Shown here: piece after piece, positions 5,186 through 63,967 of the stretch
How the letters are laid out: each line of letters starts with the position of its first letter
Numbering within the stretch: the first letter of the stretch is position 1
Origin: Kiritimatiellota bacterium
GTDB lineage: Bacteria; Verrucomicrobiota; Kiritimatiellia; JAAZAB01
NCBI GenBank assembly: GCA_026398415.1
Contig: JAPLSY010000087.1
Span: 17,826 to 81,825, forward strand
DNA length: 64,000 bases
Reading direction: 5' to 3'
Position numbers and translations under genes: made by a program
Notes under the pieces: generated by a model
Databases searched by the model: none
Seen by the model: the letters and a program-made list of their open reading frames with translations, nothing else
Told to the model about the DNA's origin: nothing

Positions 5186-5198
5186 CGAGGTAAAGTTG

Positions 5199-7142: not shown

Positions 7143-7298
7143 TGGATTTCCTCCGTATCTTACAGGTATGTTAATTGCAAATCCCTGTCGTTTGATTATT
7201 GAATATGCTAAATTTTTATGTTTAATTCAAGTCCTATATTACGAACTCTTGGTGAGCAAAAGGAAATCCTGCCACAAAATCAGGAAGGAATAAGCACA

Positions 7299-9608
7299 AT
7301 GGAAATTAAACCATTGAATCGCGGAGGTGCAAGCGGACCAGGCCTTAACCAAAAACGGAAAGCATTGCGCAGAATATTCACGATTTACCTGGGGACTTTG
7401 GGCGGCCTGGCGCTGCTGATCGGCGGCTGCCAGAATCTGGGAGCTTCCGCCAAGGATAAGGCCGATGCCAAGGCTTTGATGACTTTGCGGGCGGAGCGCC
7501 GGGAAATGGCGCATCGGCCCCGTCGGTTGATCTTAAACAACGACGGGGACGATCAAATTTTTGCCAAGGCACCCACGCGGGAAGCGTTCTTGGAAGTGCG
7601 GACCACGCCCCTGGCCGATTCCCAGGTGGACACCATCATTTACTGCACCTCGCTGCCCTTCGGCCTGTTCGCCCACCGGTCGCAGGAAGGCGAGATCCTG
7701 ACCCTGCGGGAATTCCCCAACGGCAAAGGGGGCATGTACCGGAGCATAGTGGCTGACTTCCTGGAGCAGGGGACCGATCCGTTGCAGGTGATGGTCGAGT
7801 GGTGCCGGGCACATGGCCGGGAAATCTTCTGGACCATGCGGATGAACGACGTCCATGACACCTATTACCCTTACTTACTCCCCAAGTTCAAACGCGAGCA
7901 TCCGCAATACCTGCTGGGCACTTCCAATAAACCTCCATGTCACGGCAACTGGACGGCCGTAGATTACGGCGAGCCGGAAGTCCGCGACCGGCTCGTGGGC
8001 TACCTGCGCGAGATCTGTCGGAACTACAATGTGGACGGCATCGAGATGGATTTCTTCCGGTCCCTGGTGTTTTTTCGCCCAGTCGCCGAGGGGGGCGAAG
8101 CGGGGGATGCCGAACGCGGCATGATGACCGACATGGTTCGCAAGGTGCGCCGGATGACCGAGGAGGAGGGACTGCGCCGGGGCCGCCCCATTCTGGTGTC
8201 GGCCCGTACACCCGATTCGATCGAATTCTGCCGGGCTATTGGACTGGACCTGGAACGCTGGATGCAGGAGGGGTTGCTGGATATCTGGGTGGTCGGCGGC
8301 GACTTTCGCCTGAACCCCTGGCCTGAAAACGTTGCGTTGGGCCACCGGCACGGTTTGACGATCTGGTGCGACCTGGATCCGGTCGTCCACAATGCCGCGG
8401 GTCGCTGGAACCGCAACGCGATCGAGAGCATGCGGGCCCGCGCGCTGGAAGCCTGGAGTGCCGGGGCCGACGGGGTATACTTTTTCAACTTCTACGATCA
8501 ACCGAAGGATCCAATGTGGCGGGAATTGGGCGATCCCCGGACCCTGGCAAAGGCCGACCAGGTGATCTTTGCCAACGTCATGGGTCGCACTGGGTTCATG
8601 TCGGCCGACGGAGCGTTGGCGGAGGGGCATCGGTTCGAGACTGTGAGCATGGTCCACCCGGATAACCCCATGCAATTGCGGTCGCATCAAACGCAGCGTG
8701 TCCTGGTGCCGGTGGGCGCCGATCCGCAGGCCTCCTCCAATGGGGCGGCCGACGTCGAGGCACGTTGTCACCTGTTGCTCAACGGCGTGAATGAGGCCGG
8801 CGAATTGCGGGTGAGCCTCAACGGCAAGGTTCTGGATGGAGGCGTCCTGGTGAAGGATTGGTGGGAGGCCCCTGTGCCGCCGGGCCTGCTGCGCGGTGGC
8901 ACCAACGCTTTTGACATTGTTTATACCCCGCCTTCGGATAAGGGCGTAGGCGCCGGCAAAAATACGAACGAGACTTGGAACGTGGTGTATCGCGGCGATC
9001 ATGTGATGCAGTACCCGCAACAGTTGCCCTGGCGCCGCTTGACCGACTGCAAGCAGTACGTCGAGGAGATTCGCAACGGGGCGCTTTACCTGGCCGACCT
9101 CACCGCGGGCGACGCGCAGATGATCAACCTGGCCTATCCCTGGATGGTCAGCCCGGGCGAACGGATCGTTGTGGAGGCACGGGTGAAAGTTTTGGCGTCG
9201 GACGATCCCACGGCCGTCTGTCTGCGGATGGCCGACGGGGCATCCGTGGAAATCCTGGCGTTGGAGAAGGACGGTGTCAGGTTGCTCCACGCGGGGTTGA
9301 AGCATGGTATGAATACAACGGACGCCTTTCACACGTACCGGGTCGAGATCCTCGGGAAGGATATCCGCGTATACGTGGATGGTGGCGTGGCGCTGGACGG
9401 GGCAGGGCGTTTCACGGCCCCCGTTACGGACAAAGGCAACGAGATGCCGTTGGGGTATGGACTGCGGTATTGGAACCGGTGCAGTTTGCTATGGGGATCG
9501 GCCAGCGGCCCGGGCCGGGGCGAGGCGCTCTGGGAGTTCGTCCGGTTCCGCCAATCGGGCGTGCTGTTGCACGACGTGGTCTTGACCCTGCATCATCGCG
9601 GAAAGTAA
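7299..9608 (+). CDS. glycoside-hydrolase-like TIM-barrel lipoprotein with C-terminal ConA/LamG-like domain
   Basis: ATG at 7299 with CAGGAAGGA 10 nt upstream. Lipoprotein signal ...LALLIGGCQ. The C-terminal ~190 aa (FHTYRVEILGKDIRVYVDGG...ALWEFVRF) are homologous to the N-domains of the two sialidase-like proteins. Confidence 0.6.
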   Translation: MEIKPLNRGGASGPGLNQKRKALRRIFTIYLGTLGGLALLIGGCQNLGASAKDKADAKALMTLRAERREMAHRPRRLILNNDGDDQIFAKAPTREAFLEVRTTPLADSQVDTIIYCTSLPFGLFAHRSQEGEILTLREFPNGKGGMYRSIVADFLEQGTDPLQVMVEWCRAHGREIFWTMRMNDVHDTYYPYLLPKFKREHPQYLLGTSNKPPCHGNWTAVDYGEPEVRDRLVGYLREICRNYNVDGIEMDFFRSLVFFRPVAEGGEAGDAERGMMTDMVRKVRRMTEEEGLRRGRPILVSARTPDSIEFCRAIGLDLERWMQEGLLDIWVVGGDFRLNPWPENVALGHRHGLTIWCDLDPVVHNAAGRWNRNAIESMRARALEAWSAGADGVYFFNFYDQPKDPMWRELGDPRTLAKADQVIFANVMGRTGFMSADGALAEGHRFETVSMVHPDNPMQLRSHQTQRVLVPVGADPQASSNGAADVEARCHLLLNGVNEAGELRVSLNGKVLDGGVLVKDWWEAPVPPGLLRGGTNAFDIVYTPPSDKGVGAGKNTNETWNVVYRGDHVMQYPQQLPWRRLTDCKQYVEEIRNGALYLADLTAGDAQMINLAYPWMVSPGERIVVEARVKVLASDDPTAVCLRMADGASVEILALEKDGVRLLHAGLKHGMNTTDAFHTYRVEILGKDIRVYVDGGVALDGAGRFTAPVTDKGNEMPLGYGLRYWNRCSLLWGSASGPGRGEALWEFVRFRQSGVLLHDVVLTLHHRGK

Positions 9609-9802
9609 TCGTAGATGCTGCAACATGGGGTTTCTGTATGTGTGCGGCATGCACAGGTGTCTTGATAATATCAATTGATTGGATTGGTTCAAGACAACGC
9701 AAAGAATAATTCAAGTCTTTACAATCTATCTGTAAATAACAATAATTTGTCTTCGCCGGGCTAATTTTTACGGCCACGGACTCCGGATAAAACCATGCCA
9801 AA

Positions 9803-11230
9803 GTGCGACGCACGATGAAAACGCAACACCTGCAACGGATGTTGATCGGGTTGGGGCTAATAATGGCCTTGGCGACGCCCCGGGCGTTTGCCACGGACTG
9901 GTATGTGACCACCAACGGCACCGGCGACGGGTCGGCGAGCTGGGCAAATGCCACAACTAACCTGCAGGGCGCGATAAATTCGGCAACCGACAGCGAGACA
10001 GTCTATGTGACCAACAACGCCACCTATTACCTCACGAATCAAATAACCGTCAGCTACGCTATTACGGTGCGGAGTTGGGGGCCGGGCGGAATACTGGACC
10101 CGACCAACACGATCCTGGACGGCAATTATCCCACTACGACCAACCGGCATTTTACGCTTAACAAGTACGGAGCTACGCTGGCTGGTTTTACGCTCACGAA
10201 CGGATGGGGCGAATCCGATGGTAATTCCAATACGGCCAGTGGCGGGTCAATCTATTTATCACGCGGAATAGTGACAAACTGCATTGTCATGTATAACTAT
10301 GCGTTAGGCACGAACAATGGCGGTTGGGGGGGTGGCGGTATATTGTTGATTACCGGCAGCGGGGGTGTGTGGAATTGCACAATTAGCGCTAATTCGTCAA
10401 GACAATTGGGCGGTGGCATCTACGCCAAAAACGGTGGCCCTTGGAAGATTGCAAATTGCATGGTCGCCAATAATGATTCGCGCTCAGAAGGAGCAGGAAT
10501 TAATATGGGAGCATCGGGAACGATTATCAGCAATTGTTGGATTGTCTCCAATTCCACATTTGGGAGCGCTGGCGGAGTTCGTATGAGTGCCGGAATCGCA
10601 GGGCAATGTGTTAATTCCTTTATCATAGGTAATACTGCCCGTGGCTCCTGGTCTCCCGGCGGTGGCATTCGGCCAAACTCGGGCTTGATCAGAAATTGCC
10701 TGATTGCCAGTAATGTGTCGCAATATGGAGCTGGATTAGCTATTGGCAATGCGCCGACGGAAAGTAGTTCAATTCAAAACTGTACGATTGTCGGCAACAT
10801 AGCCACTAATGGCGAGGGAGGCGGATTCGATTTAGCGGATTACAATGGTTTTGCAAAACTCGAAAACACCATCATTTGGGACAATAGCACACTCAAGGCA
10901 GGCACTATTTCCTCTAATTACTACATTAATCGCTCTGATCCGGCACTTGCGTTTGCTACCTTTACTAACTGCTGCACCTCGCCGCTAATTGTCAGCACTT
11001 ATGCTTCCGAGGTCAATACCATTACCAACGATCCGCGATTTGTGAAAACCGCAACCGATAATTACCAGTTGCAACCGGATTCGCCCTGCATCAATGCCGG
11101 CGTGAATCGGGCCTGGATGGAAGGTGCTCTGGATGTTTATGGCCATCGGCGCATTGATAATTTCCGCAGAACCGTTGATATCGGCGCCCATGAATACCTT
11201 GGTAAAGGCACAGTGTTCAGATTCCAGTAA
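9803..11230 (+). CDS. secreted right-handed beta-helix (pectate-lyase-fold) protein
   Basis: GTG start (VRRTMKTQ). The paralog at 61195 has the same GTG frame, with synonymous substitutions in the first codons. Signal peptide, then beta-helix-type repeats (N/S/T/G-rich coils: NCTI, NCIV, NCWIV, NCLIA). The C-terminal ...CINAGVNRAWMEG...DIGAHEY motif is shared with the paralog. Confidence 0.65.
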   Translation: MRRTMKTQHLQRMLIGLGLIMALATPRAFATDWYVTTNGTGDGSASWANATTNLQGAINSATDSETVYVTNNATYYLTNQITVSYAITVRSWGPGGILDPTNTILDGNYPTTTNRHFTLNKYGATLAGFTLTNGWGESDGNSNTASGGSIYLSRGIVTNCIVMYNYALGTNNGGWGGGGILLITGSGGVWNCTISANSSRQLGGGIYAKNGGPWKIANCMVANNDSRSEGAGINMGASGTIISNCWIVSNSTFGSAGGVRMSAGIAGQCVNSFIIGNTARGSWSPGGGIRPNSGLIRNCLIASNVSQYGAGLAIGNAPTESSSIQNCTIVGNIATNGEGGGFDLADYNGFAKLENTIIWDNSTLKAGTISSNYYINRSDPALAFATFTNCCTSPLIVSTYASEVNTITNDPRFVKTATDNYQLQPDSPCINAGVNRAWMEGALDVYGHRRIDNFRRTVDIGAHEYLGKGTVFRFQ

Positions 11231-11351
11231 GGAATAGACACCATGCGCATTATCGGTGAGTGGAACAACGATTGATCCCCCTTTTGCATCGCTAATGAAG
11301 TAGTGTTTATTACAAGAACGGTACGAAAGTTAATCAAACAAGGAGCTCATC

Positions 11352-17417: not shown

Positions 17418-18587
17418 TTATTCGGTCGATTTCTCTGTCGCGGTGAACCGAAAAGTGCCGATCAGGTGGACCATCACAAAATAGTATTTCTTGAACAGCT
17501 TCTTCGGCGCGGTATAGCTGATCATGTAATAATACGGCTCACGGTCGATTATCGCCTGCATCTGCTGGAATGCCTGTCCACTTGGCATCTCAAAACGGGC
17601 GACCATGTAAAAAGCCTTTTTCCCGCTCAAGTCGCCCTGGTCGGTCTTGTCCAGCTCGAACTCATCCATGGTTTTCCATTGCGACAGTATTTTATCGGCT
17701 TCGCTTCTGACCGTGCTGCCGGGTTTCTTGTTGATGATCTGGAAATTAACCGTAGTGTCATATTCTTCGGTGCCCTTGGCCCCGCAAAAGATATGCGCGT
17801 TGTCCTTGACCTCCGATTCCCAGTGCGCCGGAAGCTCGGCAACAAACCCGAACTTCTTATTCACGTACTTATCGTACTTGAGCCCCGCGGGGCCGGCAGC
17901 GGCCTCTTCGCCCGATTTAGGATTCCAATCCTTCAGGGGCGACCCTGCCGGATAATCCTGCTTATCCATTCCGGAATTATTATTTGCGGTTCCTGACCCC
18001 ACCCCGGCGGAAACGTCCTTCCCGGGTAGCTTGAGGTCAGGCAGTTCCGCCCCCGGCTTGGGACTAACCGGGATATCTGTGTTCACCAAACCATTAATAT
18101 CCCGCTTCTTGCCGTCGCCGGATGACCCGATGATGGCAAGGATAATGATTATGCCGAGGACACCTAACGCAACCAGCACAAGCGGCAGGCATCCCTTCTT
18201 CCGCGCAGGCTTCCCCGCTGAAATCGCATCCTTCACCGGCGCCCCGCATCCAGCACAGAATTTGGCGCCCGGCTTGATTTCCGCTCCGCAGGCGGAACAC
18301 TTGTTTACGGACGGCTGCCCGCAGGGCGCCCCACAGCTGCCACAGAACCTGGCGCCAGGCTTAAGCGCGGCTCCGCATTTCGAGCAGGCAAGGGCATGGC
18401 CGGAGGTATGCCCCGTTACCGCCGCCACGGCATTCTTGATGTCCTGTTTGGTTACAAGCTCCTTGTCCGCATTGTAAACGCCATCCATCAGGAATTCCGC
18501 AGGCATGTCCTTCGCACTCGTGTAAGTCCCCGTCTTGGTGCCAAACCTGAGGATTCCGAGTTTTCTAAGAATATCGATAAAACTCAT
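17418..18587 (-). CDS. double-zinc-ribbon membrane protein with C-terminal extracytoplasmic (PsbP/DcrB-like?) domain
   Basis: The N-terminal cytoplasmic part carries two tandem ribbons (CSKCGAALKPGARFCGSCGAP; CSACGAEIKPGAKFCAGCGAP). One TM follows (LPLVLVALGVLGIIIILAIIG), then a ~220-aa C-terminal domain. Its stop abuts the stop of the convergent gene at 17417 with zero spacer. Confidence 0.6.
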   Translation of the reverse strand: MSFIDILRKLGILRFGTKTGTYTSAKDMPAEFLMDGVYNADKELVTKQDIKNAVAAVTGHTSGHALACSKCGAALKPGARFCGSCGAPCGQPSVNKCSACGAEIKPGAKFCAGCGAPVKDAISAGKPARKKGCLPLVLVALGVLGIIIILAIIGSSGDGKKRDINGLVNTDIPVSPKPGAELPDLKLPGKDVSAGVGSGTANNNSGMDKQDYPAGSPLKDWNPKSGEEAAAGPAGLKYDKYVNKKFGFVAELPAHWESEVKDNAHIFCGAKGTEEYDTTVNFQIINKKPGSTVRSEADKILSQWKTMDEFELDKTDQGDLSGKKAFYMVARFEMPSGQAFQQMQAIIDREPYYYMISYTAPKKLFKKYYFVMVHLIGTFRFTATEKSTE

Positions 18588-20611
18588 ACCTGCTCCTTTG
18601 CCTGCAATGCGATTAAATCAGGACAATTGGCGCAGCATCATCGCCAAACGACGATGCCACGTTCTTAATTTCTGCATGCGGTTTGCTGCGCCAGAAGCTT
18701 CTTCAACCCCGCCAGGCATTTCTCGGCGGAGCCTGGCCGGTTTTGAAATAATTACACTTCACACACTAAGCCGACAGCACTCTCTTTAATAGCCTCCTCT
18801 TTTCTTATCGTTTGTCAAGATGGCAATGGATTTTCAACCGGCGGAACTTGGCAAACTGACGAACGAGATAATATCCCGGTTGACCCTTTGCCGGGACGGG
18901 TATAGCATTAAACTTTAAAGGAATAATGCCGGCTAAGTTCGTACTGCGTTGTTTCTAAACTGGTGTCATTGTTCGGAAAACAAAGCGACGTAATATTAGT
19001 GCTTTGTTACCAGAGGAGGGCGTTATGCGGCCGCGGATGCTGCCAATCATTGTGGGCGCCGCCGGGTGGCGGGCGCTTGCCGCACCGGGACTATCCCTCC
19101 TGCTCACCGTGCCCCTTTTGGCCCAGACCATGAACCCGCGGTATTATAACCCCGGCACGCCTACGCTCACGGATATCTGGGTCGACCCACTTAACGGAAA
19201 CGACGGCCATTCCGGTGCGAACCGCAGTCAGGCCTTGCGCAGTCTGGAAGCCGCGTGGAACAGTATCCCCAACGACGCCACACTCACAACGACAGGCTAT
19301 CGCATCCAGTTGGTCGCAGGCATCTACACAGCCGACTTGATTCCGAATTACATGGAACGGCATTACGGCACGTATGCCTGCCCGGTAATCATTCAAGCTG
19401 TCGATGGCCAGGGCACGGCCACGCTGTTGCATGACCTGAATATCTTCGACTGCCACTATCTGTACCTTGTTGATTTTAACATTACCGCGGGGGCCAACAA
19501 CCTGATCCACGGCGAGGCCTGCACCAATCTACTGATGCACGGCCTGACCCTGCAGGGCGATACCAATGCAACGCAGGAAACCATCAAGATGAATCAGTGC
19601 CAGTATATTTACCTGGAAGACAGCGATGTCTCCGGCGCCTTTTGGATGGCCGTGGACTTCTTCGCCGTCCAACATGGCCACATTGTGGGCAACCGCCTGC
19701 ACAATGCCGACTGGGTCGCTTATCTCAAGGGCGGCTCGGCCTATTTCCGAATTGAAGCCAACGAGATCTATGACGGCGGCACAATCGGGTTCACGGCCGG
19801 CCAGGGCTCCGGTTTCGAATTTATGGCATCTCCGTGGCTACACTATGAAGCATCGGACATTAAATTCATTAATAACGTCGTCCACGACATCGACGGCGCC
19901 GGCATGGGTGTTAACGGCGGCTACAACATCCTCCTGGCGCATAACACCCTCTTCCGTGTCGGCCGTCGTTCACATGCGATAGAAGTCGTCTTCGGTGAAC
20001 GCAGTTGCGATGGCAACACAGGGCGCTGCGCCGAACTACTGGCCGCCGGCGGTTGGGGCACGGTGAACGCTGGCGTCTCTGAGCCGATCCCCAATTGCCA
20101 TGTCTATATCTACAACAACATCCTTTATAACCCCGCCGGCTACCGGAGCGCAGACAGCCACTTGGCGGTCTATGCCCCGCGTACTCCCTCCATCGGCTCA
20201 AACATCCCTTCCCCGGCGGAGACGGATACCGACCTGCGCTTTCGCGGTAACATCTTCTGGAACGGGCCGCCGGATCTTGCCCTGGGCATCGGTGACAGCG
20301 ACCAAGGCGGCCAGCCATCAAACCCCACCTGCAACCCAGCGCAATTCCTCGCGGATAACACCGTCAACAGCCTTGAACCACAACTCATAAATCCGACCGG
20401 CGCAGACTTCCGGCCGCTCATCGGCGGCAACGTATTTTCAACGGCGACGTATGCCATTCCGGATTTCACGGGAACAGATCGCCCGGCCCCGCCGGCGGAG
20501 CCGCAAGGCAATCTGCTCAACACCGTTGAGCGCGATTATTACGGCTATCCCCGTTTATCCTCCAGCCCGCCGGGCGCCTTTGCCCAAGCCAATACAAACA
20601 CAACGCCCAAT

Positions 20612-21305
20612 GACTACGATGGCGACGGCAAGTCTGACCTGGCCGTGTACCGTAACGGCAATTGGGCCATCCAAACGATGGCGGGTAACGTTATCGCTTA
20701 CGGCTGGGGCGAGCCGGGCTGGATACCAGTGTCAGGGGATTATGACGGCGATGGCAAGTCCGACCTGGCCGTGTACCGTGACGGCAATTGGGCCATCCAA
20801 ACGATGACGGGTAGCGTTATCGCTGACAGCTGGGGCGAGCCGGGCTGGATACCAGTGTCAGGGGATTATGATGGCGACGGCAAGTCCGACCTGGCCGTGT
20901 ACCGTGACGGCAATTGGGCCATCTGTACGATGGTGGGTAGCATTATCGCTCGTGACTGGGGCGAGCCGGGCTGGATACCAGTGCCAGGGGATTATGATGG
21001 TGGGTAGCATTATCGCTCGTGACTGGGGCGAGCCGGGCTGGATACCAGTGCCAGGGGATTATGATGGCGACGGCAAGTCCGACCTGGCCGTGTACCGTGA
21101 CGGCAATTGGGCCATTCACACGATGGCGGGTAGCATTATCGCTGGCGGCTGGGGCGAGCCGGGCTGGACTCCCGTGTCAGGGGATTATGATGGCGACGGC
21201 AAGTTTGACCTGGCCGTGTACCGTGACGGCAATTGGGCCATCCAAACGATGGCGGGTAACATGATCGCTGACAGCTGGGGCGAGCCGGGCTGGACTCCCG
21301 TGCCG
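20612..21305 (+). repeat. tandem ~120-bp (40-aa) FG-GAP-like coding repeats, ~5.7 units, ~90% nt identity
   Basis: Repeated gattatgatggcgacggcaagtccgacctggccgtgtaccgtgacggcaattgggccatc... units are directly visible. Confidence 0.85.
20934..21067 (+). repeat. perfect 67-bp direct tandem duplication (2 x tgggtagcattatcgctcgtgactggggcgagccgggctggataccagtgccaggggattatgatgg)
   Basis: Exact character-by-character match of 20934-21000 and 21001-21067. 67 is not a multiple of 3, so the duplication causes a +1 frameshift and an immediate TAG. Confidence 0.9.
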
Positions 21306-21799
21306 TAACGCCTGAGTATGCGTGTCATTCTGGAAGCTAATATGCGCCGGTAAGTACAATGTTTGGCGGACAAGATTCTAGGTAAGGTCTCCAGTGATTT
21401 TCACCACGCCGGTTTAATTGTCGCTTGAACTACAGAATTATCTCCCCACGCCTGTCTGATCTGGCTGGCAACACCCTCCACAAAATATTTAAGAATGCCT
21501 AAATAACTCCAAAACGTTCCAAAGGCATTCCTATCACCCAAATTCGCCAAAAGGTTCAAAATTAAAGTCGGTTTGGTCGCCAACGCTGATAAAAATATTG
21601 GCCATCCAAGCCGTTCCGACATGTTTTATGCATGATTATTCTCGTCAAGCCATCGATAATCCAGTATTGACTTGAAGGTTCCCTTAAGCTTGGAAAACTA
21701 TGGCTTCAGAATACTAAAGCTTAAAAATTGATCGCAAAATGGCGCAGCCATCGCAAAACTTATTGCTAAATGGTCGCCCGCCTGAAAACAGAGGAAAGA

Positions 21800-30378: not shown

Positions 30379-32007
30379 ATGGATTCTATGATTTTCCATG
30401 GCATTTATGTAACCGTGATCGTGTTGCTCTTGTTCGGTGTATCGATCTTTGCCCATGAACTGGGCCATTTCATCACCGCTCGTCTGTTCGGCATGGTCGT
30501 GGAAGTATTTTCGTTAGGCTTCGGACCATCCATCTGGAAAAAGAAATATCGCGGTACCCTTTACAAGATCGGCATTTTCCCCATTGGCGGGTATGTGGCC
30601 CTGCCCCAGATGGATCCGACCGATGCCTTGCCGACCGTAAAGCCGAAACAAACCGATGCGACCACAGGAACATCGGCCCAGGAACCGGCGACTCCGCCGC
30701 CTAAACCCTGGTCGCCTATGGCGCCGCCGGAGGCGGGTAAACCCTGGTCGCCTATGGCGCCGCCGGAGGCGGGTAAACCCTGGTCGCCTATGGCGCCGCC
30801 GGAGGCGGGTAAACCCTGGTCGCCTATGGCGCCGCCGGAGGCGGGTAAACCCCTGCCACCGGTAGCGCCCTGGAAAAAAATCATTGTGGCGGCGGCCGGC
30901 GCCGCCGGTAATATGGTCCTGGCCGCGATCATCGCCTGGATTGTCTATTGGGGCGGCAAGCCTTCCACGCCGGGCGAGCGTTGCGCCGTTATTGGATTTG
31001 TGGACACCAATTCGGTTGCCTACACCAGCGGCCTGCGCCTCGGCGATGAAATTCTTGCCGTAAACGATGTCCCGGTTGCAACGTGGAACGATGTCATCCA
31101 GGAAAATACACGCTTTGAAACTGTCCGCTTCGCCGTCCGAACACCGGCCGGCACCAATATGATCACGGTGCCGACGGAAAAGAACGCGCTGGGTTTCCGG
31201 ATGGTGGATGGCCTGCGCGAAATCACGCTATGCAAGGTCATGGCCGTGGAGACAGAGTCCAGCGCGGCCCAGGCCGGCGTTCATCCGGAAGACGTGATTT
31301 TAAGGTTCAACGACGTAACCGTGCTCAGCATCGAGCACCTGGTCACGCTCGTGTCCGCGCGGCCGGACCAGCCCACCCCGCTCGCCGTGGAACGCGGAGG
31401 GCAAATCCTGGCCCTCACCGTCTCGCCGCAGCTTGACTCGTCCCTAGGGCGCGCGCGGATCGGCATCCGCTTCGACCCGATGGCTGTGGATTACGACAAA
31501 GTGGTTCACATCCCGCCCAGCGTTCAACTGAAGGGCCATGCCACCATGATCCTCAGGGTGGTCCGCGCACTCCTGACCCCGAAGGAAGCCAAACACACGT
31601 CCGAAGGACTCGGCGGTCCGCCCATGATTCTTTACATGATCCAGGATGCCGTGCGCAAAGGCATCATGATCGCCCTGTGGTTCATGTGCTTCCTTAACGT
31701 GAACCTGGCCATCATTAACCTCCTTCCGATCCCGGTGCTCGACGGGGGTCACATCATGTTTTCCCTGTGGGAACTGGTCACCCGGCGTCCAATTCACCCG
31801 AAACTGATTGCCTGGATTTACCAGGTTTTCTTTTTCCTGTTTATCGCGGTATTCATTCTGCTCTCGGGGCGGGATTTTCAGCGACTCTATCAACTCCACC
31901 AGCTATCGAAAACGGTTGCCCGTCAGATGGCCGTCACCAACGTCGTCACGAACGCGGTTGCCGGCACCGCTCCGAGCGCGGCTACGAACGAACCCGGAAC
32001 GCCGTAA
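30379..32007 (+). CDS. rseP: RIP metalloprotease RseP (site-2 protease) with an inserted proline-rich tandem repeat
   Basis: HELGHF zinc motif in TM1. PDZ region. C-terminal LNLLPIPVLDGGH motif. GAGGA RBS. A 4 x KPWSPMAPPEAG insert is present (see repeat feature). Confidence 0.85.
   Translation: MDSMIFHGIYVTVIVLLLFGVSIFAHELGHFITARLFGMVVEVFSLGFGPSIWKKKYRGTLYKIGIFPIGGYVALPQMDPTDALPTVKPKQTDATTGTSAQEPATPPPKPWSPMAPPEAGKPWSPMAPPEAGKPWSPMAPPEAGKPWSPMAPPEAGKPLPPVAPWKKIIVAAAGAAGNMVLAAIIAWIVYWGGKPSTPGERCAVIGFVDTNSVAYTSGLRLGDEILAVNDVPVATWNDVIQENTRFETVRFAVRTPAGTNMITVPTEKNALGFRMVDGLREITLCKVMAVETESSAAQAGVHPEDVILRFNDVTVLSIEHLVTLVSARPDQPTPLAVERGGQILALTVSPQLDSSLGRARIGIRFDPMAVDYDKVVHIPPSVQLKGHATMILRVVRALLTPKEAKHTSEGLGGPPMILYMIQDAVRKGIMIALWFMCFLNVNLAIINLLPIPVLDGGHIMFSLWELVTRRPIHPKLIAWIYQVFFFLFIAVFILLSGRDFQRLYQLHQLSKTVARQMAVTNVVTNAVAGTAPSAATNEPGTP
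30703..30850 (+). repeat. 4 perfect tandem copies of a 36-bp unit (aaaccctggtcgcctatggcgccgccggaggcgggt; KPWSPMAPPEAG) plus a partial fifth, inside rseP
   Basis: Direct inspection. In-frame, so it does not disrupt the ORF. Confidence 0.9.
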
Positions 32008-57547: not shown

Positions 57548-57737
57548 GCTATGACTCCTTCCGGTTTTAGATAACAGCCGTTAAAACTACGCAGTTGCTT
57601 TATATGGCAGATGGCATGAGACTACAATAAAAAAATGGCGCCATCTGACACTTCCGGTCTTGTGCAGAGGGAACGAAATTCCTACACTCCAATCACACCG
57701 TCGCGTTCTGATCGAATAAATGCGGAAAGCGGGAATT

Positions 57738-59228
57738 ATGCGCATTGCCGTCGTCTCTGATATCCACGCCAATCTGCAAGCCTGGAATGCGGTCTGGCTG
57801 GATATCCGCAGTATGGCTGTGGACCAAGTGGTGAGCCTGGGCGACGCCATCGGCTACGGCCCGAACCCGGCTGAGGTTCTCGAAGCGCTCTATACCTCGG
57901 TGGATTATTTCGTGCTCGGCAACCACGATGCCGCCATTTGCGGCAAGATTGACCCGGCGCTGTTCAGCAACACGGCCCGCGTCCTGATAGGCTGGACGGC
58001 AGACCACCTGGGACCCCGCGCGATTCAAGAGTTGAACACTTGGCCATTGACGCTTGCCGGCCCGAATTTCCGATGCGCGCACGGTGAATTCGGCAATCCC
58101 GAATACTTCCACTATGTCTTTGATCCCGCCGAAACCGAGCCCAGCTGGCAGGCCGTGCCGGAGCCCCTGCTGTTCATCGGGCACACTCACCAGCCCTGTC
58201 TTTATGTCATCGGCGCCAGTCTCACACCCCACGCGTTAAGCCCGCAGGATTTTATGCTCGAACCTGGCAAGCGTTACCTGGTCAACACCGGATCTGTGGG
58301 CTATTCCCGCGATGGTGATCCGCGGGCCAGTTATTGCATTTACGACACCGTGGAGGGTTCGGTGTACTGGCGTCGCATTCCTTTCGATCTCGATGCTTAT
58401 CGCGTCGCGCTGAATGGCGCGGGGCTCCCCATTGAGGCCACCGCCCTGCTCGAGTCCGATCCGCGCAAGGACCGACCGCCCCTGAGGGAACTGATTACAT
58501 TCCACCCACCCGATCGTCCGGAGCAAGCGGTTAAAAACACCATCGAGGTTCAGCATGTTGACGCACTGCGCCGGCGTGTGCGGCGTTGGCAACTGCTGGC
58601 CGCGGGAGCGTTGACATTCCTGACAGCGCTGCTGGCCACCGCTGGCGTGCTGGGCTGGCGTTATGCGCACCGTGAATTGGATATCGTCGGCGCGACTTTG
58701 TCCGCCCGCACCCCGGATTCAGAGCCCGACAACAATCTGCTGGTTTTCCCCGAAGCCCCCGTGCCTGCTTATCAACCGGTCCCAGGCTGGCACATTCACT
58801 TGGGCAACCGCTACCGCCAGATGGTGGCTTGGGACTTGGCGGACGGACGGCCCGGATGGAATTTACAGTCAAGCAGGGCAAACGAACTGTGGATTGCCTC
58901 GCCCTTGATTTCGGTGGCGCCGGACATGAAATTCACCCTGCAAGGCCGCGTCTGGAAGAGTTCCGATTTCAAGGGATCCCTCGCCGTCGTCGTCTCGCTC
59001 GTGCGGCGCATCGAAATCGGACCCGAGACCTCGGGACGCCCCGAGGTAATCGAACGCTTCGTGGTTAAAGAACCCACCCGCGTCCGGACCGATGGATGGT
59101 CGCTGATCAAGCAGACGTTCGAAATTCCCGCCCGCGCCGAGGCGATCAGCGTCCAAATCCGCGGCCGCTTTCAAGGCGCCGCGTCCCTGTGCGACCTCAG
59201 CCTGGAACGGAAGAACAGTAATCAATGA
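57738..59228 (+). CDS. membrane-anchored metallophosphoesterase (calcineurin-like) with ~190-aa C-terminal extracytoplasmic domain
   Basis: Motifs MRIAVVSDIHAN, LGDAIGYG, GNHD and GHTH. TM helix WQLLAAGALTFLTALLATAGVLGW. C-terminal domain of unknown function. Confidence 0.7.
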   Translation: MRIAVVSDIHANLQAWNAVWLDIRSMAVDQVVSLGDAIGYGPNPAEVLEALYTSVDYFVLGNHDAAICGKIDPALFSNTARVLIGWTADHLGPRAIQELNTWPLTLAGPNFRCAHGEFGNPEYFHYVFDPAETEPSWQAVPEPLLFIGHTHQPCLYVIGASLTPHALSPQDFMLEPGKRYLVNTGSVGYSRDGDPRASYCIYDTVEGSVYWRRIPFDLDAYRVALNGAGLPIEATALLESDPRKDRPPLRELITFHPPDRPEQAVKNTIEVQHVDALRRRVRRWQLLAAGALTFLTALLATAGVLGWRYAHRELDIVGATLSARTPDSEPDNNLLVFPEAPVPAYQPVPGWHIHLGNRYRQMVAWDLADGRPGWNLQSSRANELWIASPLISVAPDMKFTLQGRVWKSSDFKGSLAVVVSLVRRIEIGPETSGRPEVIERFVVKEPTRVRTDGWSLIKQTFEIPARAEAISVQIRGRFQGAASLCDLSLERKNSNQ

Positions 59229-59258
59229 TTAGTGATCAGCGAAGAAGTCCGGCACCCT
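59193..59258 (+). repeat. left copy of a ~60-bp direct repeat flanking the sialidase-like/beta-helix cassette
   Basis: ctgtgcgacctcagcctggaacggaagaacagtaatcaatgattagtgatcagcgaagaagtccgg matches 62652-62710 at ~85% with one 7-bp indel. It overlaps the last codons of the phosphoesterase gene. Confidence 0.75.
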
Positions 59259-59436
59259 GGGCAAGCACTTTCGCTGATAAATAAATTATCTGGACAAGCA
59301 ACAGAAAAACAAGAAAATGACAATCAAGAACAATGCTATTTTGGCACGTGTAGTATAATTGTTTCCAAACTGGCCAGGCTCCGCCCAGGCGAGCGCCATT
59401 GTTCGAAAAACAAAAGCGAAGGAAAGGTGAACGGCA

Positions 59437-61152
59437 ATGAAAAAAGTCCTTTTCATGATCTTTGGGATCTTTGTTCTTGCAGCGGCTTTTGCCGCAGAGG
59501 AAAAATGGATATACGTGATTGATGACAAAGGATTGGCCAAAGGCATCGTCGGTTGGACGGGGGCACAGACTTCAAATGAGGCCACCGCGGAAGGCCTGAG
59601 GATCATGGATCCGTCTACGAATAAAGGCAGCGGACGCCTTTACTCTGTCAACTGGAATATTGATCCGGCGGCCGGCGCCATTGTTGAAGCCGGCATGAAA
59701 ACCATTAGTTGTTCCGGCGAGTCCGGTAATTGTTTAGGCGTTTCGGACGGAGTCCATGGAGGTTCTTTCACGTTTTTCCCCAATCGAATTGTGTTCTCCA
59801 GGCCTTCGGCCGAAGTTTCCTTCCAGACCGACGACGCGTTTCACACTTATCGCATCGAAATAAAAGGCGAAGATATAAAATTCCTTGCGGACGGAACACT
59901 CCTTTGGGATGGGAAAGGCCAGTTTAGCCAACCGGTCGCTGACAACGGCAACAGTGTGTATTTTGGCTCCGGTTCTTCGGCCGCCACAGGCGAAGCCATA
60001 TGGAAATTTGTTCGTTTTAAAATTTCAGGTACTGCCAAGGAAGAAAAGGTTGTAATTCCAGAAGCCCCGGACCTGGAAATCAGTCTGGGCAAGATGGTAA
60101 CCATCGTTCCCTCTGATGCGTCGGAATTCATTTCTTTCTTCCGCTATAAAGACGGCCGAATGGTGGTCTCCGGCAACTGGTCGGAAGATGGAGGGAACAC
60201 CTGGAACAAACGAAATCAGTCCAGTCCGGGAATTAGCGCCGTAGAGCTTCCTGACGGAACGATTATCCAGCCGGGTTGGACAGCCAATTATGTATCCCCT
60301 GGCGTATACGAAGCTGACCTTGCCACATGGACGCCTGACGGGAAACTTTCGCAGGAAAAAGCCAAAGCCTTTATTCCCGATGGTGCCGGGGGGGTTAAAG
60401 ATGATGCCGGGGTTTATCATAAATCGACAGGTGTTTTTGACCATGGCACCGTCCAGCTTTCCGATGGCAGCCTATTATCCGTCATATACGGTAATTTTAA
60501 GGATGACAAGGTCCAGATTCCTACCTATGACTTTACAATATACAAAACTCGCGTATGGGTAATGCATTCAACGGACAAAGGCAAGACTTGGAATTATCTT
60601 GCCACGGTTGCCTATGATCCGGAAATCGGATTGGAAAGTTTCTGTGAACCGGGATTACTCCAACTCCCGGACAAGGATATTCTCTGTTTTATGCGTACCG
60701 GCGGCAAGGGCTGGGCTGGGGCCAAATACACACCTTTATATCTGTCGCGTTCCAAGGATGAAGGCAAAAGCTGGTCAAAACCCGTTCCCATTGCTGATTT
60801 TGGAGTGTATCCCAATGCGGCGCGCGCTGCAAATGGCGTTTTAGCCGTGGTTTACGGGCGGCCACATCACGAGGTTGCTTTCAGTGCAGACAACGGCAAG
60901 ACATGGCAGGGCCATTTTAAATTCAGCGGTGGGGGTGGTAGTTTCTATGATTTTATTGCCGCCGTGGACAAAGATACCTTTCTCGTGATTTACCCCAGGA
61001 AAGGAAGATTAGACGTTGAACAAGGAAAAATCGTAGACGATGCGGTTGGGAGATTTATCACGGTAAAGCCGAAAGTAAAACCATCCAACTGTCCCGTGGT
61101 GCGTGCTTTTCAAAGTTTCCGTAATTTTGTGCGAGCAAAGTTGCATTTTTGA
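59437..61152 (+). CDS. secreted BNR/Asp-box (exo-alpha-sialidase-like) protein with N-terminal ConA/LamG-like domain (paralog of 5199-7142)
   Basis: GAAGGAAAGG RBS. Signal peptide MKKVLFMIFGIFVLAAAFA. Asp-box motifs (STDKGKTW, SRSKDEGKSW, SADNGKTW). FHTYRIEIKGEDIKFLADG...IWKFVRF domain. Confidence 0.7.
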   Translation: MKKVLFMIFGIFVLAAAFAAEEKWIYVIDDKGLAKGIVGWTGAQTSNEATAEGLRIMDPSTNKGSGRLYSVNWNIDPAAGAIVEAGMKTISCSGESGNCLGVSDGVHGGSFTFFPNRIVFSRPSAEVSFQTDDAFHTYRIEIKGEDIKFLADGTLLWDGKGQFSQPVADNGNSVYFGSGSSAATGEAIWKFVRFKISGTAKEEKVVIPEAPDLEISLGKMVTIVPSDASEFISFFRYKDGRMVVSGNWSEDGGNTWNKRNQSSPGISAVELPDGTIIQPGWTANYVSPGVYEADLATWTPDGKLSQEKAKAFIPDGAGGVKDDAGVYHKSTGVFDHGTVQLSDGSLLSVIYGNFKDDKVQIPTYDFTIYKTRVWVMHSTDKGKTWNYLATVAYDPEIGLESFCEPGLLQLPDKDILCFMRTGGKGWAGAKYTPLYLSRSKDEGKSWSKPVPIADFGVYPNAARAANGVLAVVYGRPHHEVAFSADNGKTWQGHFKFSGGGGSFYDFIAAVDKDTFLVIYPRKGRLDVEQGKIVDDAVGRFITVKPKVKPSNCPVVRAFQSFRNFVRAKLHF

Positions 61153-61194
61153 ACTGGAATGGTAATTTAGGACAACGATGGACATCTTGACAAA

Positions 61195-62592
61195 GTGAGA
61201 CGCACTACGAAAACTCAATACTTGCAACGGATGTTGATTGGATTTGGGCTGGCGATGGCCTTGGCCGTGCCCTGGGCATCGGCGACGAATTATTACGTAG
61301 TGGCGTCGAGCCAGCAACCGTCGCCGACATGGCCCTGGACCAATTGGGCATGGGCCCATACCAACCTGATCGAAGTCGTTGCCGGCGCCCGCGACACCGA
61401 CGTAGTGTATGTGACCAACAACGCCACCTATTGGCTCACGAATAAAATAACCGTCAGCTACGCCATGACGGTGCGGAGTTGGGGGCCGGGCGGGATCCTG
61501 GACCCGACCAACACGATCCTGAGCGGCAGATATCCCAGTGCAATCAACCGGCATTTTACGCTTAACAATGCCGGGGCCACCGTGGCGGGATTTACGCTCA
61601 CAAAGGGGTACGAGAGTTCCGGCGGGTCAATTTATTTGCAGAATGGAATGGTGACGAACTGCATAATCGTGAGCAACGTTGCCTATTCCTCTTCCGGAGG
61701 TGGTGTGCATATGCTAACCGGTACTGGAGGCGTGTGGAATTGCACAATTAGAGGCAACATAGCATCAAACACTTCGGGGTCGGGCGGAGGGCTTTGGACC
61801 CAGTCCGGGGGACCGTGGTGGATTGCAAATTGTACAATCTCCGCCAATTCTACTGGATACGGTTGTGAAGGCGGGGCGATCACGGCCGTTGCCGCGTCTA
61901 CGATTATCAGCAATTGCTGGATTGTATCCAATGTAGGATCATGGAGCGCCGGCGGAATACGTCTGGCGGCCGGTGCGGCATGCTATAATTCCTTTATCAT
62001 GGGCAATTCAGCGGAATGTTATCCCGGCGCAGGTTTTGGTTTTGGGGGTGGCTTGCGTATGATCGGTGACGGTGCCTTGATCAGAAATTGTTTAATTATT
62101 AACAATCATTCGTCTAGTCATGGTGGTGGAATCAAAGGTGATTGGAGTCTTAAAATTCAAAACTGTACGATTGCCAGCAACGTAGCTGTAGGAAGCGGAG
62201 GCGGATACGCTTACGAACAAAGCGTTGGTTCCCCGGCAATTGAAAACACAATAATATGGGGCAATAGCGGAAGCGGAATTTATTCTAATTTGTACATAAC
62301 TGTGGGTACAAATACATTTACCAACTGCTGCACCTCGCCGAGAATTGTCGTCAATTCTTATGTCAGCGATGTGGTCAATACCATCACCAACGATCCGCGG
62401 TATGTGAATATCGCAACGGGCGATTTCCGATTGCAATCGGATTCGCCTTGTATCAATGCCGGGGTAAATCGGGAGTGGATGGATGGTACGCTGGATTATT
62501 ACGGCAATCGGCGTATTGATACTTTCCGCAAAATCGTCGATATCGGCGCCTACGAGTATCTCTGTCCCGGCACAGTGTTCATCGGCCATTAA
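61195..62592 (+). CDS. secreted right-handed beta-helix protein (paralog of 9803-11230)
   Basis: Conserved GTG start frame (VRRTTKTQYLQRMLIG). Signal peptide. Beta-helix NC.I repeats. Shared C-terminal CINAGVNREWMDG...DIGAYEY motif. Confidence 0.65.
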   Translation: MRRTTKTQYLQRMLIGFGLAMALAVPWASATNYYVVASSQQPSPTWPWTNWAWAHTNLIEVVAGARDTDVVYVTNNATYWLTNKITVSYAMTVRSWGPGGILDPTNTILSGRYPSAINRHFTLNNAGATVAGFTLTKGYESSGGSIYLQNGMVTNCIIVSNVAYSSSGGGVHMLTGTGGVWNCTIRGNIASNTSGSGGGLWTQSGGPWWIANCTISANSTGYGCEGGAITAVAASTIISNCWIVSNVGSWSAGGIRLAAGAACYNSFIMGNSAECYPGAGFGFGGGLRMIGDGALIRNCLIINNHSSSHGGGIKGDWSLKIQNCTIASNVAVGSGGGYAYEQSVGSPAIENTIIWGNSGSGIYSNLYITVGTNTFTNCCTSPRIVVNSYVSDVVNTITNDPRYVNIATGDFRLQSDSPCINAGVNREWMDGTLDYYGNRRIDTFRKIVDIGAYEYLCPGTVFIGH

Positions 62593-62651
62593 GAAATAGA
62601 CGCCATTCGTATTATCGGCAAGTGGAACTTCACATTCTGCCTTTCGGTCAT

Positions 62652-62710
62652 CTGTGCGACCTCAGCCTGAAACAGAAGAACAGTAATCAGTGATCAGTGC
62701 AGAAGTCCGA
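62652..62710 (+). repeat. right copy of the ~60-bp direct repeat flanking the cassette
   Basis: ctgtgcgacctcagcctgaaacagaagaacagtaatcagtgatcagtgcagaagtccga. See the left copy. Confidence 0.75.
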
Positions 62711-62725: not shown

Positions 62726-63967
62726 TTATTGCACGCCGCGGGAAATCATGGCCTGGACAATCTTTTCCAGGGCGATGCAATAGGCCGCCTGGCGGAAGGA
62801 CACTTTCTTGGCGCCGGCCATTTCCTTGACACCGGCATAGGCCTTGCGCAAACGGTTGAAGAGCCGGGTATTGACGTCCTCTTCCTCCCAATAAAACCCC
62901 TCGCGGTTTTGTACCCACTCGAAGTAGGACACGATCACGCCACCGGCATTGGCCAGAATGTCAGGCACCAGCACAATTTTGTGGGATGCCAAAATCTTGT
63001 CGGCCTCCGGCGTGGTGGGCCCGTTGGCGCCCTCAACGATCAGCTTGGCCTTGACGCCCGCCGCATTCTCCGCCGTGATCGTGTTTTCCTTGGCACAGGG
63101 CAAGAAAACATCACACGGATAGGAAACAATATTATCCGCCAGCGGCTTGCCGCCGGGGAAGCCTTCAATAACACCGGCCTGATCGCGGTGTTTAAGCAGT
63201 TCGCGCACGTTCAATCCTTCGGGATTGCAAGTTCCACCCGTGATATCCTGAATGGCGACGACCTTGAGACCACGCTCAAAACAATCCATGGCCGCATGTG
63301 CACCCACGTTGCCGAATCCTTGTACGGCCACCGTGTAATTTTCCAAGCCGACATCCTTAACCGCCTCCAGCATGGTGCAGACCACGCCACGGCCGGTAGC
63401 TTCCTTGCGGCCCAGCGAGCCGCCCAAGGCGATCGGCTTGCCGGTGACTACGCCGCGGGCAACGTCGCGATATTTGCGATATTCGTCATAAATCCAAGCC
63501 ATTTCCCGGGCGCCGGTACCCATGTCGGGCGCGGGAATATCGATGTTGGGCCCAATGTCATTTACCAGGCGGGAGGTATATTTGCGCACCAGCCGTTCCA
63601 GTTCCGTGATCGAAAGGGTTTTTGGGTCCACCGTAATCCCGCCCTTGGCCCCGCCGTAGGGGATGCCGACCAGGGCGGTTTTCAACGTCATCCACAGGGC
63701 CAACGCTTTGACTTCATCCAAGTCCACGTCGGGATGGAACCGGATACCACCCTTGTAACAGCCCAGCACATCGCTGTGCTGGATGCGATAACAGTTAAAC
63801 ACCTTCAGGCCGCCGCGGTCGAGTTGGACCGAGGCCCGGAACATAATCACCTTATCCGGAATGCGCAGACGTTCCATGATTTCCTGCCCTGGGAACCGCT
63901 TGCTGAAGTTCAGGATATCGGCCGTTTTCTGCACTAGACCGATCGCATTCTCCAAGACATTTGCCAT
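62726..63967 (-). CDS. gdhA: Glu/Leu/Phe/Val dehydrogenase-family glutamate dehydrogenase
   Basis: AAAGGAG RBS. Catalytic region KGGIRFHPDVDLDEVKALALWMTLKTALVGIPYGGAKGG. Rossmann GFGNVG. 413 aa. Confidence 0.85.
   Translation of the reverse strand: MANVLENAIGLVQKTADILNFSKRFPGQEIMERLRIPDKVIMFRASVQLDRGGLKVFNCYRIQHSDVLGCYKGGIRFHPDVDLDEVKALALWMTLKTALVGIPYGGAKGGITVDPKTLSITELERLVRKYTSRLVNDIGPNIDIPAPDMGTGAREMAWIYDEYRKYRDVARGVVTGKPIALGGSLGRKEATGRGVVCTMLEAVKDVGLENYTVAVQGFGNVGAHAAMDCFERGLKVVAIQDITGGTCNPEGLNVRELLKHRDQAGVIEGFPGGKPLADNIVSYPCDVFLPCAKENTITAENAAGVKAKLIVEGANGPTTPEADKILASHKIVLVPDILANAGGVIVSYFEWVQNREGFYWEEEDVNTRLFNRLRKAYAGVKEMAGAKKVSFRQAAYCIALEKIVQAMISRGVQ

Follow-up and report, generated by a model that had tools for sequence, protein, structure and literature searches.

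A probable accessory-gene islet at a gene-gain hotspot between convergent metallophosphoesterase and glutamate dehydrogenase genes in Kiritimatiellae

The window analysed here, a 64,000-nucleotide stretch of a contig from a Kiritimatiellota bacterium, holds a 3.4-kb segment with two genes, one for a secreted BNR/sialidase-family protein and one for a right-handed beta-helix protein, between converging core genes that encode a calcineurin-like metallophosphoesterase (MPE) and glutamate dehydrogenase (gdhA). It is very probable that this segment is an accessory-gene islet inserted at a hotspot between MPE and gdhA. The junction of the two core genes is a lineage-wide site of gene gain, and the recurring feature belongs to the site and not to the cassette of the window. 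An earlier reading of the sequence alone (the sequence-only reading) had missed the eight unrelated cargos at the junction, and that two more of them (in L001 and L007) are accompanied by a relic of the MPE 3' end.

Using MPE relatives drawn from species-representative genomes, JGI metagenomes and Logan/ENA assemblies, we found MPE directly convergent with gdhA, 7-270 bp apart, in 10 related Kiritimatiellae assemblies, and these empty sites identify the 3.4-kb segment as an insertion. In every empty-site relative gdhA adjoins MPE, with the smallest gap, 7 nt, in L015 and L019. The composition of the cargo is atypical as well, the GC content at third codon positions (GC3) being 0.50 in the BNR gene and 0.57 in the beta-helix gene vs 0.70-0.75 in the flanking genes. 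Both results bear out the insertion that the sequence-only reading had proposed, and the empty arrangement that it had suggested looking for in related genomes is the one found in the 10 assemblies. MPE orthologs in L001-L004, L007-L012 and L019-L025 share 81-92% amino acid identity, and the 10 kb of the window upstream of the site (49-59 kb) are collinear with L002 and L003, save for an AraC gene that is missing from the window.

The segment lies between two direct copies of the MPE 3' end, R on the left and R' on the right (Table 1), which bracket exactly the BNR and beta-helix genes, with no further gene between them. Their alignment of 65 columns has 54 matches, 4 mismatches and one 7-nt gap (83%; 54 of 58 aligned bases identical once the gap is set aside; BLAST E = 2e-13), much as the sequence-only reading had described the pair: a repeat of about 60 bp with a 7-bp indel, the left copy including the last MPE codons, around precisely these two genes. 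The coding part of R, the final 42 nt of MPE, ends in LCDLSLERKNSNQ and the stop; R' holds the same frame and stop (LCDLSLKQKNSNQ) but lacks the upstream gene, and 16 nt separate it from the gdhA stop. The 7-nt indel arises because a heptamer tract (CAGTRAT) differs by one unit between the copies. This tract overlaps the MPE stop and, in the sub-lineage of the window, partly encodes the MPE tail NSNQ; the number of units is not constant between the window copies, L009, L010/L022 and L011. R' matches the MPE 3' end of L009 in length (58 nt, 89.7% identical, 0 indels), and the sequence that continues R (TCCGGC) resembles the empty-site sequence of L009, L010 and L022. Substitutions between R and R' amount to 6.9%, vs 18-19% at 4-fold degenerate sites between the window and the nearest genomes, so that the insertion is younger than the splits from the nearest relatives; it post-dates the split from the sampled relatives, yet is not recent in the sense of near-identity.

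A 38-mer probe with 3 mismatches allowed found R and R' as the sole sites in the window (0 of 100 shuffles gave a match), and in the relatives R-type sequence is confined to the MPE-gdhA locus. A motif dispersed through the genome, which the sequence-only reading had named as the finding that would speak against it, was thus rejected. A conserved dual-function site was rejected as well: the last 27 MPE codons show no excess of synonymous conservation (0.79 vs 0.757 overall), Rfam gave no match for R or R', and terminator scans and folding yielded no consistent terminator on either strand and no consistent fold. An assembly artefact is unlikely, since the copies are non-identical, the left junction is present in two independent assemblies (Logan contigs L023 and L024, identical to the window at 56.8-59.5 kb) and the same architecture occurs in the unrelated assemblies L001 and L007. 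R' is to be annotated as a pseudo-3'-end and not as a gene. The two Logan contigs (window 56804/56942-59496) both end at 59496, 60 nt inside the BNR gene, where strain heterogeneity, or the conserved N-termini that BNR paralogs share, probably broke the assembly.

Eight mutually unrelated cargos with no shared homology occupy the MPE-gdhA junction (Table 1), four of them visible in full and four in part, and their Pfam content is that of ordinary metabolic, regulatory or toxin-type genes. Pfam searches of these eight, complete and partial, detected no integrase, transposase, relaxase or excisionase, nor fragments of them. The sequence-only reading had stated that the window has no integrase or transposase; in the cassette, the Pfam/NCBIfam content (BNR_2, beta-helix) agrees with this, and none of the 11 inverted pairs found is a terminal inverted repeat pairing its ends. 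Neither an integrative and conjugative element (ICE) or integrative and mobilizable element (IME) nor a tandem relic array was seen at the site in the 18 loci of this small sampling. The two features of a hotspot flanked by core genes, unrelated accessory content between the same pair and homologous recombination in a flanking core gene (see below), are both present at the site. As relatives of the cargo open reading frames (ORFs) are lacking in all other locus flanks, translocation of the cargo genes from near gdhA was rejected; the same fate met the idea that the L001 cargo is a degraded second AraC-MPE locus, its AraC and metallophosphoesterase being unrelated to the resident ones. Some empty-site spacers hold GC-rich palindromic sequence resembling repetitive extragenic palindromes or miniature inverted-repeat transposable elements, e.g. 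GCCTTCGCCAAGGCTACGGTGGGCAGGC (L002:11500-11770, L010:3395-3520, L022:6330-6460), which indicates that small elements too land at this junction.

Besides the window, both cargo ends are visible in two other close relatives. Behind the cargo of L001 stands a 79-nt relic of the MPE 3' end that shares 80% identity with the working end of the gene, and behind that of L007 one of 55 nt with 95% identity; the more distant L005 has no such relic. The left boundaries of the relics relative to the MPE stop (-81, -55, -39) differ in each of the three cases, and the stretch that all three repeats share is limited to 27 nt (59187-59213), in which inspection of these three cases made no dyad symmetry evident. 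The origin of the relics can be read from the empty-site locus L025, where the intact MPE ends in AAGGATTAA (the GATTAA stop allele) and is followed by the same spacer as the relics of L001 and L007, while the working MPE of L001 and L007 ends in the typical stop allele (AAATGA or TAATGA), AAGAAATGA or AAGTAATGA. As judged from these alleles, relic and spacer in L001 and L007 are native and the present MPE end came with the insert. The differing stop alleles rule out a simple in-situ duplication in these two loci, and the pattern fits any model in which the incoming DNA bears its own MPE 3' end.

Recombination has made MPE a mosaic: L001 and L009 are 98-99% identical at nt 76-300 of the gene and 78-79% at nt 976-1200, the nearest neighbour of the window gene changes along its length (window vs L001-L011), and the stop-allele types disagree with the pattern in the remainder of the gene. 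A four-arm test, in which the relics of L001 and L007 differ by 20% and the adjacent spacer by 4% (Fisher p = 0.0015), had suggested that the relic is borne by the cargo. We withdrew this reading, because L025 shows that the spacer is unusually conserved in all three genomes (2-3%) and that the divergence of the relics (9-16%) is normal for MPE coding DNA. The spacer from MPE end or relic to gdhA differs by 2-4%, vs 7-11% in flanking coding DNA, and its minus strand has a strong fold in L007 (z = -4.2); it may be a conserved 3' untranslated region (UTR), a terminator or a small RNA of gdhA.

As the mechanism of insertion we tentatively favour homology-facilitated illegitimate recombination independent of any recombinase. 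The source of the incoming DNA, with an MPE 3' end followed by cargo, would have been a related Kiritimatiellae strain or a different locus. Its left side would have recombined homologously within MPE, and an illegitimate joint would have linked its non-homologous right end to the chromosome at a point 39 nt upstream of the resident stop of MPE. The working MPE would thereby end in the incoming copy R, and the resident 3' end, displaced past the cargo, would persist as the decaying relic R' beside the native spacer and gdhA. Selection would retain only events that spare both converging genes, and short relics would outlast long ones, since long duplications recombine the cargo out again. With MPE-gdhA gaps as short as 7 nt, only events that duplicate the MPE tail spare both genes; selection for intact genes and the stability of short relics would thus lead to short gene-tail duplications at the surviving insertions. 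Several points weigh against this mechanism. The homologous crossover on the left and any microhomology at the right junction are putative, and just three occupied sites have both ends visible. R and R' of the window are of the same allele type (NSNQ and heptamers), so that an in-situ duplication might have occurred here. A duplicated gene 3' end around cargo is the textbook signature of an integrase, and three of them at one gene are what would be expected of a dedicated attachment (att) site. Moreover, homology-facilitated illegitimate recombination in the laboratory usually deletes recipient DNA and does not duplicate it.

The cargo is a member of a multicopy two-gene module. In the same assembly, a metagenome-assembled genome with locus tags NT011_, at least three more BNR and beta-helix pairs occur (Table 1), further cassette copies of the kind that the sequence-only reading had proposed to search for; the adjacency of two of them is taken from consecutive protein accessions. 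The beta-helix family has at least 16 paralogs in the source genome (including proteins P0122-P0149), all conserved in their N- and C-terminal thirds, whose N-terminal ~100 and C-terminal ~90 amino acids are nearly invariant, while the central beta-helix is variable. The paralogs within the window, which had been called close, are not: the BNR gene shares 27% amino acid identity with that at 5199-7142 and no match at the DNA level, and the beta-helix gene shares 54% amino acid and 67% nucleotide identity with that at 9803-11230, with a divergence at 4-fold sites that is 0.39 overall, lower at the ends (0.30-0.32) and higher in the middle (0.50). This contrast suggests that the ends undergo concerted evolution or gene conversion, or that selection diversifies the centre. 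The GTG-start region of the two genes is conserved, as had been noted, but it is the near-invariant N-terminus of the family and no mark of recent copying. A shared 3' flank is likewise present, although it covers 36 nt (30 of 36 identical) and not ~45. These 36 nt follow the TAA stop of both paralogs, give similar in-frame peptides (EIDAIRIIGKWN and GIDTMRIIGEWN) and lose their similarity sharply after GTGGAAC in both; a conserved element of the 3' UTR, or what is left of an ORF further downstream, may explain them. The best paralogs in the genome reach 77-83% (beta-helix) and 77-79% (BNR) amino acid identity, less than the ~92% of orthologous MPE in sister genomes, so that a recent duplication from them is not supported and no copy in the assembly is near enough to be a recent source.

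Among the other explanations, the main rival, an integrase-less islet at an att site that resembles a cis-mobilizable element (CIME) or a satellite, is rather unlikely. The cargo would once have sat on an integrative element or be mobilised by one in trans. The MPE 3' end would be attB and the attP of the element would mimic it; integration would restore MPE with the copy R of the element and leave the native end as attR (R'), the integrase having been lost or acting elsewhere. The layout is the canonical one, with the target gene intact at one end, a partial copy of its 3' end at the other and empty sites in relatives, and three different cargos show it; in L001 and L007 the allele of the relic is native and that of the working end imported, as the model predicts. 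There are also precedents, since CIMEs of 1.2-13 kb with carbohydrate-metabolism genes are documented at the 3' ends of fda, rpsI and rpmG (PMC7563491), and degenerate elements and partial-tRNA relics are known in tycheposon islands (bioRxiv 10.1101/2020.12.28.424599). We nevertheless favour homology-facilitated illegitimate recombination over such an islet, because the cargos carry no recombination genes (in the window two genes fill the segment), the relic boundaries differ, the putative attB has no excess synonymous conservation and MPE is a mosaic. The three left boundaries are hard to explain by one recombinase with one crossover site, and together with the unraised synonymous conservation they weigh against a single site-specific crossover; the missing tandem relic arrays and the 27 common nt, in which inspection revealed no dyad-symmetric core, point the same way. 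An attP borne by a phage or another element was rejected, as a search of IMG/VR with a degenerate pattern of the R core gave only two chance DNA matches and a search there with the BNR protein no relative. A further variant, in which the MPE tail is a dedicated landing site for integrase-less cassettes that uses a recombinase encoded elsewhere or an undescribed mechanism duplicating 55-81 bp, seems improbable; if true, a protein gene in an uncultured phylum would in effect have at its 3' end a platform for cassettes like that of integrons or satellites.

An in-situ duplication of the target is unlikely. Here the resident sequence itself would have been doubled, by cargo entering at a staggered break or by a replicative template switch that re-entered 65 nt upstream of its exit, and selection would have kept events that left both convergent genes whole. 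The window copies fit this well, sharing the lineage-specific NSNQ and heptamer allele and lying 4 substitutions and one microsatellite step apart; the varied duplication lengths (55-81 nt) suit a non-specific process, and at gaps down to 7 nt only duplicating insertions spare both genes. Nonetheless, the copies in L001 and L007 differ in their stop allele (AAATGA/TAATGA vs the native GATTAA, as in L025), and three such chance events at one gene end are not to be expected. We know of no bacterial precedent for target duplications of 55-81 bp. Recent duplication of a resident cassette, whether by transposition or segmentally, one of the readings that the sequence-only reading had put forward, does not stand up and is now very improbable. 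The numerous pairs and beta-helix paralogs in the genome and the recurrence of a promoter-like motif of the cargo leader at 18.7 kb would agree with it, but the paralogs, those within the window above all, are much older than R and R', neither a transposase domain nor terminal inverted repeats were found in the cassette, and a 65-bp repeat is far too long for a transposon target-site duplication, with lengths of 79 and 55 bp elsewhere that show it not to be fixed. Just as improbable is a single ancestral duplication of the MPE 3' end, followed by turnover of cargo between the copies and by recombination between them that gave rise to the empty sites. That the relics of L001 and L007 precede the same spacer would suit it, yet this spacer is the native one and directly follows intact MPE in the empty L025, the relic boundaries differ, the relic of the window bears the NSNQ and heptamer allele of its own sub-lineage and not GATTAA, and no sub-lineage is without empty sites, the most distant ones (L006 and L014, 62-65% amino acid identity) included.

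Table 1. Features of the window locus (positions in the window) and of the MPE-gdhA junction in relatives
Feature	Position	Strand	Details
MPE, calcineurin-like metallophosphoesterase	57720..59228	+	502 aa; Pfam Metallophos_2 1e-16, Metallophos 4e-13; target gene
R, left direct-repeat copy	59187..59251	+	last 13 codons and stop of MPE, then 23 nt downstream
Heptamer tract in R	59216..59243	+	CAGTAAT CAATGAT TAGTGAT CAGCGAA, read from sequence; one unit more than in R'
Left end of inserted DNA, non-coding BNR leader	59252..59436	+	185 nt
Cargo gene 1, secreted BNR/sialidase-family protein	59437..61152	+	571 aa; Pfam BNR_2 2.6e-15; MCX6994036; 100% match to protein P0001
Cargo gene 2, right-handed beta-helix protein with choice-of-anchor-Q C-terminal domain	61195..62592	+	NCBIfam choice_anch_Q 7e-8; NT011_12965, MCX6994037
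3' flank in common with paralog flank 11231-11266	62593..62628	+	36 nt, 30/36 identical
Last 23 nt of inserted DNA, up to right junction J2	62629..62651	+	similarity to paralog flank stops at 62628, R' begins at 62652
R', right direct-repeat copy	62652..62709	+	non-coding relic of MPE 3' end, -39 to +23 around MPE stop
Heptamer tract counterpart in R'	62681-62701		heptamer microsatellite CAGTRAT
gdhA, glutamate dehydrogenase	62726..63967	-	Pfam ELFV_dehydrog 1.9e-75; converges on the site from the right
Pair MCX6992681/80			consecutive accessions; 77% BNR, 83% beta-helix (partial) aa identity to cargo
Pair MCX6992316/15			consecutive accessions; 69% BNR, 66% beta-helix
Pair MCX6993005/00			five accessions apart; 79% and 77%
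Empty-site loci			L002, L003, L004, L006, L010, L014, L015, L019, L022, L025
Cargo, window			BNR and beta-helix
Cargo, L001			metallophosphatase, 915-aa protein of unknown function, AraC
Cargo, L005			GHL10-like protein and one of unknown function
Cargo, L007			AbiEii/NTP_transf_5-like nucleotidyltransferase
Cargo, L009			AraC
Cargo, L011 = L020/L021			URO-D-like protein, xylose-isomerase-like TIM barrel
Cargo, L012			secreted protein of unknown function
Cargo, L026			class II aldolase, FGGY kinase
Conserved MPE-gdhA spacer	L025:1854-1994, L001:9297-9437, L007:12503-12622

Upstream of MPE, an AraC-family regulator gene stands between a GFO/MocA oxidoreductase gene and MPE in several relatives (L001:1415-2296, L002, L010, L022); it is missing in the window (57548-57719), L009 and L011, and the GFO-MPE spacer is also short in L008 and L014. 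In the BNR leader, for which Rfam gave no match, a 41-nt motif at 59348-59388 (+) recurs at 18722-18762 (-) with 85% identity. It is promoter-like, with a TATAAT-like box and GGCCAGGCTCCGCC, precedes both the BNR gene and a gene for a zinc-ribbon protein (17418-18587), lies nowhere else in the window and was not found in 16 relative loci. A second block of low GC3 (3266-11230) comprises a DUF4838 gene (GC3 0.57), the BNR paralog, a GHL10-like gene and the beta-helix paralog (GC3 0.56); the block may represent a further island of acquired genes for glycan degradation, and a search for flanking direct repeats of at least 28 nt found none. Furthermore, tandem repeats with a period of 126 nt (20551-21421) lie at and past the 3' end of an FG-GAP/beta-helix gene (19004-21007), and perfect 36-nt tandem repeats (30666-30881) lie within the gene 30379-32007.

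The segment offers a dated example of the gain of accessory carbohydrate genes in glycan-degrading Kiritimatiellae, at a convergent junction that was used at least eight times and at which three events left a relic of the neighbouring gene tail. If the recombinase-free route is true, short gene-tail duplications could be a general mark of homology-anchored gain in metagenome-assembled genomes without recognisable mobile-element genes; if the mechanism is of the att type, the MPE tail would add a new integration target to a phylum in which hardly any mobile elements have been described.

Compared with site-specific elements in general, the flanking repeats with an intact target and the unoccupied attB in relatives are present, and an integrase inside the element is not. 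CIMEs are decayed integrative elements found in streptococci at the 3' ends of fda, rpsI, rpmG and rplL (PMC7563491). The segment resembles them in being a small block of cargo (CIMEs have 1-13 kb and often carbohydrate-metabolism genes) without an integrase, with direct repeats of which one overlies an intact gene 3' end, and in the empty or otherwise occupied sites of related strains; as in CIMEs, both flanking repeats are kept in the window, and no recombination or conjugation genes were found. Unlike here, CIMEs have an ICE or IME with the same att site as their source or as a tandem neighbour, and no such element was seen in the 18 loci, while in the Kiritimatiellae the boundaries differ among the three cases and the repeats are longer (55-81 bp) and more diverged. 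Tycheposon islands lie at tRNA genes and comprise integrase-bearing elements and att relics (bioRxiv 10.1101/2020.12.28.424599), whereas the target here is the tail of a protein gene and no integrase was found.

In both the favoured mechanism and the present loci, no recombinase gene travels with the cargo and the position of the junction varies. Homology-facilitated illegitimate recombination operates in the naturally transformable Acinetobacter and Streptococcus pneumoniae with one homologous flank, the other end being joined arbitrarily nearby. In contrast to the classical process, in which recipient DNA is lost, the joint here lies upstream of the end of the homology and a recipient piece of 55-81 bp is kept in duplicate. 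Oliveira, Touchon, Rocha and co-workers reportedly described in 2017 horizontal-transfer hotspots flanked by conserved core genes. The MPE-gdhA site resembles such hotspots and flexible islands in that one core pair brackets unrelated accessory genes, next to a mosaic flanking gene and partial copies of the target, and the segment of the window is thus an ordinary case, a further example, from a phylum that has been little studied, of a known kind of genome plasticity; it is no new mobile element.

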